This document shows positions 1,452 to 7,085 of a stretch of 11,074 bases of DNA, piece after piece; the first letter of the stretch is position 1, and each line of letters opens with the position of its first letter. Made by a program: the position numbers and the translations under genes. This DNA comes from a virus. Lineage: Duplodnaviria; Heunggongvirae; Uroviricota; Caudoviricetes. The stretch lies in the IMG/VR virus record IMGVR_UViG_2534682164_000010; one strand, written 5' to 3'. The notes beneath the pieces are model-generated. The model ran no database searches and was not told the origin of the DNA. It worked only from the letters and a program-made list of their open reading frames with translations.

Positions 1452-1696
1452 CTGAAAAATAATTCTTTAAAATACCTGACATGTAATACAGAAAAAACAC
1501 AAAACCATACCTTAAATAAAAACCTGATTATCAAGCAGATATGCATGGATAAACTACAAGACGAGATATAAACCACCCTGCATTTAAATAAACAATAAAC
1601 AACATCAGAAAAATAATTCTGCTCTATGGTTTACATTCAAAAATATCATTTATACTTTTCAGAACATCACCAGCAAGGCATAAACAAGGAAACTAA

Positions 1697-2032
1697 ATGA
1701 AGTGGATTGTGATTGATACAGTTATCCAGCCATCATGCGGAATATCTTTTTCAGTCATATGGAGTAAAATAAAATTAATAATCTGGTATCAATCGGATGC
1801 TTTCTTACCTCCTGAAAGTATATTTACACTGACTCACACAGGCATCATGCTCAATAACAAAGTGCTACCTGTAACCATTTACAACGTAGTACCATTCAAT
1901 AAAACATTCTGGAATTCAATCAAAAATAGCCAGGAATGCCCTACAAATACAGATAACGTATTGAATGAATGCTTTAATAACCGTTGCACTCTGCAAATAT
2001 GTCCTTATGGACTAAAACAACAAAGTCCATAA
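1697..2032 (+). CDS. hypothetical protein, 111 aa, AT-rich cargo ORF
   Basis: ATG preceded by AAGGAA about 8 nt upstream; possible -10 TATACT at 1651-1656; a perfect stem-loop follows at 2068-2089. By my reading about six of thirteen Ile codons are AUA. No family recognised. Confidence 0.4.
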
Positions 2033-2067
2033 GGAGTTTACTCACATCTGACAAAATCAATATAAAC

Positions 2068-2089
2068 AGCCCCTCCGGAGAGGGGCTGG
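2068..2089. terminator. perfect 9-bp stem / 4-nt loop hairpin CAGCCCCTC-CGGA-GAGGGGCTG between convergent ORFs
   Basis: Seen in sequence. On the minus strand it is followed by a U-rich tract (UUUAUAUUGAUUUU); on the plus strand it lies 36 bp after the stop of ORF 1697..2032. Compatible with a bidirectional intrinsic terminator. Confidence 0.5.
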
Positions 2090-2214
2090 AGAGTGGCGCT
2101 ATGTGCCATTGCATGGTGCCGGGTGCCTCCCGGTGAATTCAGTACCAGCACCTGAATCCGCGATTATCCCATATACCTACTCGCTGATTGCCCCTCCGCA
2201 CAGGGGGATTCACC

Positions 2215-2301
2215 ATGCCAGTTTCTTTTAACAAACTCCCCGCAAACCAGACAACAGTCAACCGCCTGAATTGTGAAGTATTTAAAAATTTCTCCCGCTA
2301 A
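2215..2301 (+). CDS. candidate mini-ORF, 28 aa (MPVSFNKLPANQTTVNRLNCEVFKNFSR)
   Basis: ATG at 2215 preceded by AGGGGGA about 8 nt upstream; stop TAA 2299-2301. Not supported by homology; could be chance. Confidence 0.15.
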   Translation: MPVSFNKLPANQTTVNRLNCEVFKNFSR

Positions 2302-2312
2302 CTGATACCCGG

Positions 2313-2399
2313 CTAACAGTCTGGCGTTTTCTTTTTCAGCAACGGGAAAGCAACAACCACCACACCCGCCACCAGCACACCGTCAGCCAGCACTGACAT
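2313..2399 (-). CDS. candidate small hydrophobic peptide, 28 aa (MSVLADGVLVAGVVVVAFPLLKKKTPDC)
   Basis: Minus-strand ATG at 2399, stop at 2313-2315. One hydrophobic stretch followed by KKK suggests a single-pass membrane peptide. Not supported by homology. Confidence 0.2.
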   Translation of the reverse strand: MSVLADGVLVAGVVVVAFPLLKKKTPDC

Positions 2400-2479
2400 T
2401 ATCCGGCTGCTGCAATGCCATTCACAAAAACAGTAAGCAATCACTTTTTACCGTAACAGGTGATAATCCAGATATGTAT

Positions 2480-2833
2480 CTACCCCAGATGAGTAATCCG
2501 AAGTTCATCCATACCACAGGTCCTGGCTATTCTGTTGTACTCCTGAACAAGAGCAAATAATTCTGAATTAGCAACCATGAACTCATCGCAAACCCTCTGT
2601 ATAGCATCACTATTCAGAATAATAACGTCTCTTCCCGAAAGACGATCAGGAGTACAGAACAAAACTGTCAAACGGCTGAAGGCCTTTGCTCGTGCTGCAT
2701 TGACTATATCAATACGCTGCCTAAGGATGAAACACCCCGACGCCTCATCAATATTCACTCTACCCACACCATATGAATGATAAATATTTAATGCTGAAAA
2801 AACCATTAGACCGTATAACAAACACTCAATCAA
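2480..2833 (-). CDS. hypothetical protein, 117 aa by ORF track (TTG start at 2833; first ATG gives 2480..2806)
   Basis: Open frame in AT-rich DNA just downstream (minus sense) of the phage tRNA genes. Contains several AUA and AGA/AGG codons by my reading. No family recognised. Confidence 0.35.
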   Translation of the reverse strand: MIECLLYGLMVFSALNIYHSYGVGRVNIDEASGCFILRQRIDIVNAARAKAFSRLTVLFCTPDRLSGRDVIILNSDAIQRVCDEFMVANSELFALVQEYNRIARTCGMDELRITHLG

Positions 2834-2943
2834 TACTTAACAGAACTTTTATTTTTGACAAACATAAAATATTTTCAACAATATCCTGAGCCAGGTATAT
2901 TTCAGTATAAGGCTCTGCCGGAAGGAATCTGGAAGAATGAATA

Positions 2944-3020
2944 TGGCGCGCTGTACTGGATTCGAACCAGTGACCGATTGCTTAGAAGGCAATTGCTCTG
3001 TCCGGCTGAGCTAACAACGC
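2944..3020 (-). tRNA. tRNA-Arg, anticodon UCU (77 nt including CCA)
   Basis: Reverse complement GCGTTGTTAGCTCAGCCGGACAGAGCAATTGCCTTCTAAGCAATCGGTCACTGGTTCGAATCCAGTACAGCGCGCCA folds as a cloverleaf: 7-bp acceptor stem with one G-U pair, anticodon loop CUUCUAA, T-arm ACTGG-TTCGAAT-CCAGT. Confidence 0.85.
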
Positions 3021-3120
3021 TGAATACCGATAATGGACCGCCATCGGGGACCCGCCCCCGCACCAACAACCCTGTTATCATGTCGTCTGCTCTTCCTGAT
3101 AAGCTAATGGCGGTTTGTGA

Positions 3121-3196
3121 TGGTGGCCCTTGCTGGATTTGAACCAGCGACCTGGCGATTATGAGTCGCTCGCTCTCACCACTGAGCTAAAGGGCC
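3121..3196 (-). tRNA. tRNA with CAU anticodon, most like tRNA-Ile2 (ileX/ileZ type), 76 nt including CCA
   Basis: Reverse complement GGCCCTTTAGCTCAGTGGTGAGAGCGAGCGACTCATAATCGCCAGGTCGCTGGTTCAAATCCAGCAAGGGCCACCA; perfect 7-bp acceptor stem; anticodon stem-loop nearly identical to recalled E. coli ileX. Ile2 versus Met cannot be settled from sequence alone. Confidence 0.8.
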
Positions 3197-3235: not shown

Positions 3236-3259
3236 AAAAAACCCGCTCGGCGGCGGGTT
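3236..3259 (-). terminator. intrinsic terminator (tR-prime-like) about 40 bp downstream of the Q stop
   Basis: Minus strand reads AACCCGC-CGCCGA-GCGGGTT followed by TTTTTTATT. Its position after Q matches the lambdoid late-operon arrangement. Confidence 0.6.
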
Positions 3260-3298: not shown

Positions 3299-4153
3299 TT
3301 ATGACGAATTTACCACAGATTCCGGAAAAATCAACCTAGTTACCTTTTTTAACTGCCGCTCAGCCCATGCTTCTTCAATATCAAACCGGGTCACCAGCGC
3401 ATCATAGAATTTCTTAACTGTTTTTTCCCATGACGCGCGTGTTATCTGGTTTGTCACCTCGCATATAGCATTAAATGCCTCCGTTGATGGTAGTCTTTCA
3501 TAGCCACGACCACCACAACGCTGGCAGTCTCTGATAACAGGCATACCACGTTTTACCGACTCTTCACGATGAATGGCGACACCACGCCCACGGCAATCCT
3601 TACAGGCGGTGGAAACCTCACCCTTTCCGCCACACTCCGGACAGGCAACTTTTACCACCTCCCTGACTTTTTTCCATTCTTCCCAGTAAGACGGATACAC
3701 ACCTTTCGTACACTTTGCCCATACCGGCGGCTTACCATCCGGATACTGGACCTTGTTTGTAAAAACTACGCTTTCAATAAATTTTTCCCCATAGCAACAA
3801 GGGCACTGCTTTTTACTCGCTGCGCTGCGGGCATAATCCTCAAAAGCGTACGAAGCCATAATGCGCATCACTACCGGTTTTATTTCTGCCGGAAGTTTTC
3901 TCAACGCCGCCACACGATCGCACCGACTGAGTGCATAATCTGCCAGTAATTCTGTTGCCCGCGCCCTGTCATTCATACTGATGCCCATTTTCCCCAGGAA
4001 CGCAGAAAACCCCATCTCAGCCCGATTCTGTGTCATGCCCTGCGCGGCCATCACATCAGTGATACTCAGCGCATCTTTTGACGTTGAGGCCGATGCATCG
4101 GTCAGGCAAGGGGATTTTGGGGAGTAGTATTTCGGTAAATCTTCCAGTTTCAT
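3299..4153 (-). CDS. phage late-gene antiterminator Q-like protein (284 aa)
   Basis: Sits directly after rusA and before a terminator and tRNA genes, the canonical Q position. Carries three CxxCxGxG zinc-finger-like repeats (CPECGGKG, CKDCRGRG, CQRCGGRG). N-terminus resembles long-form Q proteins of lambdoid prophages as I recall them. Start overlaps the rusA stop (ATGA). Confidence 0.65.
   Translation of the reverse strand: MKLEDLPKYYSPKSPCLTDASASTSKDALSITDVMAAQGMTQNRAEMGFSAFLGKMGISMNDRARATELLADYALSRCDRVAALRKLPAEIKPVVMRIMASYAFEDYARSAASKKQCPCCYGEKFIESVVFTNKVQYPDGKPPVWAKCTKGVYPSYWEEWKKVREVVKVACPECGGKGEVSTACKDCRGRGVAIHREESVKRGMPVIRDCQRCGGRGYERLPSTEAFNAICEVTNQITRASWEKTVKKFYDALVTRFDIEEAWAERQLKKVTRLIFPESVVNSS

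Positions 4154-5115: not shown

Positions 5116-7085
<1,970 letters not shown>

Follow-up and report, generated by a model that had tools for sequence, protein, structure and literature searches.

Results

The hairpin block is a copy of the STnc100 RNA gene

The viral DNA analysed here, IMG/VR record IMGVR_UViG_2534682164_000010 (Caudoviricetes; 11,074 nucleotides (nt), referred to below as the window), carries between positions 2068 and 2399 a GC-rich block of hairpins followed by two mini open reading frames (ORFs), and the hairpins belong to STnc100, a small RNA (sRNA) of prophages, a copy of which lies here on the minus strand. A preliminary description had placed four stem-loops between two cargo ORFs; all of them are present, three exactly as described and the first displaced by one base (2067-2088 instead of 2068-2089). 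Hairpin 1 (2067-2088) has a perfect stem of 9 base pairs (bp), CAGCCCCTC/GAGGGGCTG, with a CGGA loop, hairpin 2 (2119-2133) reads CCGGG-TGCCT-CCCGG, hairpin 3 (2137-2157), ATTCAG...CTGAAT, extends to a full stem of 8 bp (2135-2142 with 2152-2159), and hairpin 4 (2191-2206) reads CCCCT-CCGCAC-AGGGG. The motif GCCCCTCCG, reported as common to the first and last hairpins, is indeed found at 2069-2077 and 2190-2198. The two ORFs, of 28 codons each, lie at 2215-2301 on the plus strand (translation MPVSFNKLPANQTTVNRLNCEVFKNFSR) and at 2313-2399 on the minus strand (MSVLADGVLVAGVVVVAFPLLKKKTPDC).

The Rfam covariance scan, which the same description had named as a check, settles the identity of the hairpin block. 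With cmscan, RF02076 (STnc100) matched the minus strand from 2247 to 2058 over the full model (positions 1-206 of 206) with 132.4 bits (E values of 1.2e-29 and 1.1e-30), compared to a gathering threshold of 47 bits, and this was the sole non-tRNA match of the Rfam scan of the window. All four hairpins are helices of this one minus-strand RNA gene: hairpin 1 is the sRNA terminator, and hairpins 2, 3 and 4 are the helices P4, P3 and P2 of the family, respectively. The membership in RF02076 is seen in the bit score, the coverage of the full model, the consensus helices and the location in a prophage late region, and the published STnc100 quantitative PCR (qPCR) primers (PMC12370729) are identical to the window at 2125-2144 and 2199-2218. 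A tRNA-like or other known RNA fold was considered and rejected, as ARAGORN gave two tRNA genes only and a permissive cmscan (E up to 1) returned STnc100 only, with no riboswitch or other Rfam family. The block is beyond chance, with a fold z-score of -3.1, the 132-bit model match and helices maintained in homologues.

The window sRNA sequence or close variants of it occur in 2860 of the 5426 complete E. coli genomes, with up to 12 copies per genome, and 286 phage records, mostly of Shiga toxin (Stx) phages, match the STnc100 sequence. RefSeq gives at those E. coli loci a 'hypothetical protein' only. On the E. coli 042 homologue this is a partial 'hypothetical protein' pseudo-coding sequence (CDS) on the plus strand over the sRNA (window 2103-2228), and no non-coding RNA annotation at the sRNA was found in the E. 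coli 042 record or in the sampled matches from other complete E. coli genomes. Two different STnc100 variants per locus were observed in the viral contigs L042 (1485-1786), L007, L012, L016, L022, L052, L076 and L116, those of L042 lying about 250-300 nt apart, and core types and 3' modules were met in varied combinations, which suggests modular recombination. An E. coli-type STnc100 identical to a viral-contig copy was also found in L130 (Xanthomonas pisi contig NZ_JPLE01000080.1, 888 nt), where it is probably an assembly contamination.

Secondary structure, covariation and a pseudoknot

The minimum free energy (MFE) fold of the 159-nt minus-strand RNA has an energy of -69.5 kcal/mol (z = -3.1), which none of 200 shuffles reached, and reproduces the RF02076 structure. 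In both the MFE fold and the Rfam structure, the 8-bp closing helix P1 pairs GCAUGGUG (2211-2218, minus strand, as are the coordinates that follow) with CACCAUGC (2111-2118), P2 is the hairpin CCCCU-GUGCGG-AGGGG (2191-2206) and P4 the hairpin CCGGG-AGGCA-CCCGG (2119-2133). P3, GGAUUCAG-loop-CUGAAUUC, occupies 2135-2159 with 8 bp.

Homologues were gathered with an exact pattern of 22-27 nt spanning P4 and the 3' strand of P1, which gave 120 viral and 9 genomic loci, and the two loci of the sRNA PasD of enteropathogenic E. coli (EPEC) were added; the sRNA region of this set comprised 70 distinct variants and the covariation alignment 33 distinct core sequences. Standard pairs were formed in 94.3% of the cells of this alignment, compared to 34-48% when the partners were slid, and the covariation score of 0.200 (shuffled mean 0.133) was reached by none of 500 shuffles. 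Helix P1 was paired in 97-100% of the cells with wobble changes only, P2 in 95%, with CCUUUC/GAAAGG as variants in Enterobacter, and P3 in 95.5%, with five of its eight pairs changed on both sides. In phage P1, the closing helix GCGGUG/CACCGC is two bases shorter on both strands and the counterpart of P4 is CCGGG-AAGCA-CCCGG. The conservation analysis that had been named for the stems upheld their pairing, with covariation in P3. The motif GCCCCTCCG was found twice in just 41 of the 70 distinct variants and is dispensable, and the idea that it might switch the RNA between P2 and the terminator was rejected.

We found also a pseudoknot, in which AUCAGC after P2 (2183-2188) pairs with GCUGGU in the P3 loop (2144-2149). 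Its complementarity is kept in four sequence groups as different as AUCAGC/GCUGAU, AUCAGUAC/GUACUGAU, CUGGUG/CACCAG and CCAGUCA/UGACUGG, and AAUGAUC/GAUCAUU in PasD. Duplexes of the two strands from the same variant have energies of -8.0 to -11.2 kcal/mol, compared to a cross-group mean of about -3, and five of the six pairs showed changes on both sides, even in an imperfect register. In L010, L005 and L030 the two strands pair instead as a nested hairpin that precedes a short P3. The nested helix GCGA/UCGC of the MFE fold, a competitor of the pseudoknot, was discarded, being unconserved (GCGA to GCAA uncompensated in L036-type variants). The pseudoknot was found neither in the nested structure line of Rfam nor in the published accounts of the family, of which one (bioRxiv 10.64898/2026.05.13.724894) used RNAalifold, unable to predict pseudoknots. 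Taken with the alignment, the predicted fold shows a compact 5' domain in which P1 encloses P2, P3 and P4 and the pseudoknot links the P3 loop with the bases following P2; a linker of about 25 nt and the terminator come after this domain.

The block might also be a mere set of terminators or palindromes at a convergent junction of cargo genes, with no separate RNA gene. In favour of this, the hairpin at 2067-2088 resembles a terminator and stands where the plus-strand iraM homologue meets minus-strand genes, and the plus strand of the block folds about equally well (z = -3.5). However, a U-run follows just one of the four hairpins, the others lie inside the 8-bp long-range helix and covary together with the pseudoknot, a conserved promoter lies upstream, and homologues are discrete transcripts on Northern blots and in RNA-seq, so that we consider this explanation very unlikely. 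The earlier suggestion of a terminator cluster with chance mini-ORFs holds for one hairpin, which is a terminator, and for one mini-ORF, which is a chance frame; the other hairpins are sRNA helices and the other ORF is the remnant of a DUF3927 gene.

Putative promoter, transcript ends and terminator

The sRNA is inferred to be a transcript of about 159 nt from an extended -10 promoter of its own, with its start at about 2218 and its end at about 2060 on the minus strand; it begins with GCAUGGUGAAUCC and runs to a U-rich tail. The start was placed by promoter conservation and by homology to PasD2, and the 3' end by the terminator. The 5' end of PasD2, estimated from RNA-seq at NC_011601 741157 (PMC8550237 Table S6), is the G of GCAUGGUG and is homologous to window position 2218 in the cmscan alignment. 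The putative sigma-70 promoter (2225-2254, minus strand) comprises a -35 box TTGTCT (2254-2249), an 18-nt spacer and an extended -10 element TGtTAAAAG (2233-2225), 7 nt upstream of the start; the RF02076 model also takes in about 30 nt of this upstream promoter DNA. The sequences TTTGTTAAAA and TTGTCTG upstream of the RNA are kept in most variants, and the divergent variants of Klebsiella and Enterobacter have TTGAC(T/C) -35 boxes at the same distance. RpoD signal was reported by chromatin immunoprecipitation with exonuclease digestion (ChIP-exo) at Salmonella STnc100 promoters (PMC10794520).

The terminator scan gave at 2067-2088 of the minus strand an intrinsic terminator of 9 pairs, of which 7 are G-C, with the tail TTTATATTGA. 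The U-tract of the window terminator is weak (UGUUUAUAUU), whereas other loci carry GGGGCUUUUUU. In the loci with an iraM insertion, GGGGCTGTTTATATTG replaces the usual GGGGCTTTTTT (window 2040-2066), and the weakness of the U-tract is apparently due to the convergent iraM insertion, which took the place of the customary U run.

The plus-strand mini-ORF

The plus-strand ORF at 2215-2301 had been described as preceded by a strong Shine-Dalgarno sequence. The ORF exists; the supposed Shine-Dalgarno, AGGGGGA (2202-2208, 6 nt upstream of the ATG), is the G-rich arm of the sRNA hairpin P2. The frame is antisense to the sRNA nucleotides 2-4, the promoter and its spacer, and its ATG (2215-2217) is the complement of these three nucleotides. 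From the same ATG, the length of the ORF in 137 homologous loci was 2, 5, 10, 13, 16-21, 28, 33-34, 56-70 or 100-108 codons, and the ATG was absent in 9 of them. The conservation analysis named as a possible refutation showed no constraint on length.

A genuine small protein of the PHROG family 27294 was weighed at this place. The ATG with AGGGGGA upstream would fit it, as would a match to phrog_27294 with an E value of 6.6e-15 and a ribosome-footprint signal on some STnc100 copies of EDL933, though this signal is on the strand of the sRNA and not on that of the ORF. Against it stand the scatter of lengths and the lost start codons, the coincidence of the conserved first 21 codons with the conserved sRNA promoter DNA, and the long versions of the ORF, which are antisense translations of tRNA genes; moreover, the PHROG match is limited to profile positions 1-27 of 59, and no match for this ORF was found in Pfam or NCBIfam. 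Such a partial match fits a family of mis-called ORFs. A real protein is, in our estimate, extremely improbable here, and the plus-strand ORF is, as judged from these comparisons, a chance frame, because its length scatters across the homologous loci.

The minus-strand mini-ORF

The 28-codon ATG ORF with a hydrophobic helix followed by KKK is present at 2313-2399 of the minus strand, as described. It forms the 3' part, in the same frame, of a 43-codon GTG ORF (2313-2444, minus strand; RefSeq WP_000562553.1), a 5'-degraded gene of the DUF3927 family, to which the TciB protein of phage P1 belongs. The 43-codon ORF matched Pfam PF13064 (DUF3927) with 95.6 bits (gathering cut-off 25 bits), residues 2-43 being aligned on profile positions 7-53, and phrog_1470 'TciB-like' with 49 bits; the earlier idea of a small membrane protein has in this way found its family. 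At E up to 0.001, DUF3927 is a large family of 859 clusters, found in E. coli and Klebsiella. A tblastn search of DUF3927 against phage records was empty, probably through low-complexity masking, and its occurrence in phages was drawn from DNA matches and annotation.

Intact members have 51-55 amino acids (aa) and two hydrophobic helices (MTVKLRLAVAALLLFLVVMVDFTSRIMSVLADGVLVAGVVVVAFPLLKKK..), joined by D-F-[ST]-S-[RK]. In intact loci, a GGAG precedes the GTG start of DUF3927, and this start and the stop of a terB-like gene overlap in the bases GTGA. In the window copy, the translation signals (2445-2480, minus strand) are lost, with the Shine-Dalgarno GGAG changed to GGAT and the start GTG to GTT. 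DNA alignment with the full-length copies of L049 and L047 showed that deletions of 15 nt and 5 nt just downstream, inside 2313-2444, remove the first helix, in whose place the window copy has VIAYCFCEWHC instead of the two-helix arrangement. The terB-like partner is gone, the upstream gene being an unrelated phrog_2873 ORF, and neither GTG 2444 nor ATG 2399 has a convincing ribosome-binding site. Because the Shine-Dalgarno, the start codon, the first helix and the terB-like partner are lost, the copy is most likely a remnant, and the 28-residue peptide the surviving C-terminal (second) transmembrane helix of a DUF3927 gene.

The 4-nt overlap (GTGA) of terB-like and DUF3927 genes was observed in the Klebsiella prophage L213:2079-2656, in L049 and in L047, and tciA and tciB are adjacent in phage P1. 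This arrangement indicates that the two genes may form a translationally coupled membrane cassette between Q and the lysis genes. The 'Tci' name rests on homology only, via the adjacency to the TerB homologue TciA, and a literature search on TciB gave nothing relevant.

The RNA and the peptide gene as partners

A small hydrophobic peptide beside a structured RNA had suggested a type I toxin-antitoxin locus, in which the minus-strand peptide would be a membrane toxin and the RNA its antitoxin. The helix followed by KKK agrees with this, and so does the position of the RNA, about 94 nt downstream of the ORF. The association is also recurrent. Of 136 sRNA-seeded loci, 46 have DUF3927 upstream on the same strand, mostly at a distance of 94 or 33 nt, and both PasD loci have it there too. 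All 76 viral loci seeded with DUF3927, a set of high redundancy, have the sRNA after it, and in Klebsiella prophages the order is Q, TerB-like, DUF3927, STnc100 (80 bits), holin.

Other findings argue against a toxin-antitoxin pair. The RNA and the ORF share a strand, one behind the other and without overlapping, and the sRNA was also found without DUF3927, after tRNA genes or stx2B, so that the pairing is not obligate. Between the sRNA and the DUF3927 mRNA, the longest Watson-Crick run was 7 nt in the window, 8 in PasD2 and 9 in PasD1, the means of mononucleotide shuffles being about 7 (6.9 for the window), and the duplex-energy z-scores were -0.85, -0.33 and -0.32 for the window and both PasD loci, i.e. 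complementarity was at chance level at the three loci tested. The ORF belongs to DUF3927/TciB and not to a toxin family, with no match in NCBIfam or PADLOC; its window copy is 5'-degraded, having lost the Shine-Dalgarno, the start codon and the first helix; and the intact members are coupled to a terB-like gene, an operon and not a toxin-antitoxin organisation. The DUF3927 gene and the sRNA appear linked, yet not as toxin and antitoxin, a relation which we regard as highly improbable. Of the structured RNA that had been proposed in this context the structure is real, whereas its strand and partners had been misread, the RNA gene lying on the minus strand in tandem with the peptide ORF.

Genomic context

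Bases 1600-3100 of the window are 99.5% identical to E. coli 042, and by its gene content the window is the late-region accessory-gene ('moron') slot of an E. coli lambdoid prophage. The STnc100 copy is flanked by the Q antiterminator and tRNA genes on one side and by lysis genes on the other. In the window, the minus strand carries the Q antiterminator gene (3299-4153), two tRNA genes detected by ARAGORN, tRNA-Ile/Met(CAT) at 3121-3196 and tRNA-Arg(TCT) at 2944-3020, and a 117-codon ORF at 2480-2833 of unknown function (phrog_2873, 233.9 bits), which is without an annotated CDS in the E. coli 042 RefSeq record. On the other side, a homologue of the anti-adapter gene iraM (1697-2032, plus strand; NF007393, 162 bits) converges on the sRNA terminator, and beyond it follow, in minus-strand order, the DUF1737, holin, lysozyme and spanin genes. 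Membership in a defence system was rejected, as PADLOC gave no match for the DUF3927 protein, the 117-aa ORF or IraM.

A strong terminator-like hairpin, AACCCGCCGCCGAGCGGGTT followed by TTTTATT, was noticed at 3240-3259 of the minus strand, between the Q stop, which it follows at about 40 nt, and the tRNA genes; it could be the tR' of the late promoter region. Two overlapping ORFs of 390 and 266 codons (5116-7085, minus strand) resemble an istA/istB pair of the IS21 type inserted in the prophage, a label based on gene sizes, arrangement and reading of the protein sequences; from this element on, the window loses collinearity with E. coli 042.

Discussion

The block at 2058-2247 is very probably a minus-strand copy of the prophage sRNA STnc100, and the two mini-ORFs beside it, instead of being partners of the RNA, a chance frame and a DUF3927 remnant. 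The element is already known, its family being catalogued in Rfam. Published work on relatives gives an idea of how it might operate. In EDL933, 11 STnc100 copies are transcribed, and a Northern blot confirmed one of them (PMC5331693); the sRNA EcOnc27/sRNA103, which binds Hfq, overlaps the STnc100 copy downstream of stx2B (PMC12711010); and PasD1 and PasD2 of EPEC are abundant in sequencing of ligated interacting RNAs (RIL-seq) with Hfq and depend on Hfq for their stability (PMC8550237). By analogy with these relatives, the window RNA, whose putative extended -10 sigma-70 promoter sets its start near 2218 and whose end is put near 2060, would be made in the lysogen, bind Hfq and act by base-pairing in trans. 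Its seed would be the variable linker immediately before the terminator (...CCACUCUCCA...), a C/U-rich stretch with complementarity to sequences of the GGAG type, and the conserved 5' domain would be a structural module. The terminator might also stop the sRNA promoter from reading into the lysis genes.

Several points weigh against this interpretation. The evidence of expression and Hfq binding stems from relatives and not from the window variant itself, of which the weak U-tract GGGGCUGUUUAUAUU may mean poorer termination and Hfq binding than in other copies. A simple consensus promoter scan did not call the sRNA promoter, owing to the G that closes its -10 hexamer. Conservation in the RNA is highest in the parts tied up in helices and junctions, an unusual pattern for an sRNA that acts by base-pairing and one that offers no explanation of the 5' domain. 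P4 and the 3' strand of P1 were fixed by the search pattern and are invariant for that reason except in PasD and phage P1. As for the DUF3927 ORF, its 3' part is identical to intact copies, decay being seen at the 5' end only, and a one-helix peptide may still be translated.

In a different view, the pseudoknotted 5' domain is the functional unit, either binding a protein or ligand or acting in cis, tied to the terB/DUF3927 'tci' module, and pairing by the linker is secondary. Junctions such as GGUGAAU are invariant in E. coli, Klebsiella, Enterobacter, PasD and phage P1 while the helices covary, 3' modules are swapped between different cores, and the synteny with DUF3927 is recurrent. Phage P1 has, in addition, in the presumed leader of tciA-tciB-tciC an STnc100 core-like sequence, GCGGUGAAU...ACACCGGGAAGCACCCGGCACCGCAA (70080-70199; L219:81-200), with 33.4 bits, under the threshold. 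Some 35 nt and no terminator separate this element from the tciA start, and it precedes the tci genes rather than following them; this arrangement is the sole hint of a possible cis-acting link between the RNA and the tci genes. However, the phage P1 match is weak and its pseudoknot not traceable, the permissive Rfam scan disclosed no riboswitch, two thirds of the copies have no upstream DUF3927, and published data speak for Hfq-dependent action of the relatives in trans. An ATG directly follows the terminator in several variants, and a riboswitch or leader of a downstream ORF was considered; as a general explanation it was rejected, since 99 of 129 instances lack an ATG-started ORF of at least 40 aa within 260 nt and 93 of the 129 have a terminator and no such ORF starting within that distance. 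Because a terminator follows in lambdoid loci, a leader role is not general. We hold this alternative to be unlikely for the window RNA. Stated for STnc100 and PasD together, the proposal that P1-P2-pseudoknot-P3-P4 is a functional module of its own (a binding fold or a cis leader), coupled to the terB/DUF3927 cassette, with the Hfq-bound linker as an exchangeable add-on, has a small though slightly better chance of being right. The preferred reading is still that of an STnc100 sRNA that would act in trans.

The significance of the finding is small, the sRNA family having been in Rfam for years and the peptide belonging to a Pfam family of unknown function. At this very common locus, RefSeq replaces the sRNA by a 'hypothetical protein' on the plus strand, which is spurious, and counts as a protein what is a degraded piece of DUF3927. 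STnc100, PasD and DUF3927 are present in more than half of the complete E. coli genomes and beside Shiga toxin genes, and the covarying pseudoknot and the recurrent order of DUF3927 then sRNA are handles for mutational work on the STnc100 family.

Compared with known systems, the locus resembles hok/sok, tisB/istR-1 and zor/orz in that a small hydrophobic ORF lies beside a structured sRNA in a prophage. It differs from these type I systems by having neither antisense overlap nor extended complementarity, by an RNA that often occurs without the ORF, and by an ORF which is of another family and degraded. The ORF itself has a counterpart in TciB of phage P1, a DUF3927 protein (PF13064, 106.4 bits) which shares the core SRIMSVLADGVLV...P..K with the window ORF; compared to TciB and intact DUF3927 genes, the window copy lacks the first helix, the Shine-Dalgarno, the start codon and the terB-like partner.

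PasD1 and PasD2 of EPEC E2348/69, homologues of EcOnc13 of enterohaemorrhagic E. coli (EHEC), have the same architecture and the same 5' motif GCAUGGUGAAUCC as the window RNA and occupy the same position, with a DUF3927 gene some 40 nt upstream and with Q and holin on either side. P3 and the pseudoknot are kept between PasD and the window by compensatory change, whereas the 3' region of P4/P1 and the linker diverge, so that the two are not nearly identical. UGUGAG, the predicted PasD seed, which precedes the terminator within the linker (PMC8550237), is absent from the window RNA (2060-2218), and PasD scored 37.7-41.4 bits on RF02076, under the threshold. A shared ancestor of PasD and STnc100 was proposed by Zhu, Shabalina and Storz (bioRxiv 10.64898/2026.05.13.724894), and by these scores PasD is a distant relative and the window copy a typical STnc100 member. 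With the STnc100 family, first listed in Salmonella and represented in EHEC by the copy overlapping EcOnc27/sRNA103 downstream of stx2B, the window copy has in common the helices, the lambdoid late-region slot, the multiple copies per genome and the qPCR primer sites, and no family-defining difference was found. It is preceded by a DUF3927 remnant where the stx2B-linked STnc100 is preceded by stx2B, its 3' module is 'AAUGGCACAUAGCGCCACUCUCCA', and its U-tract is weakened beside the convergent iraM.

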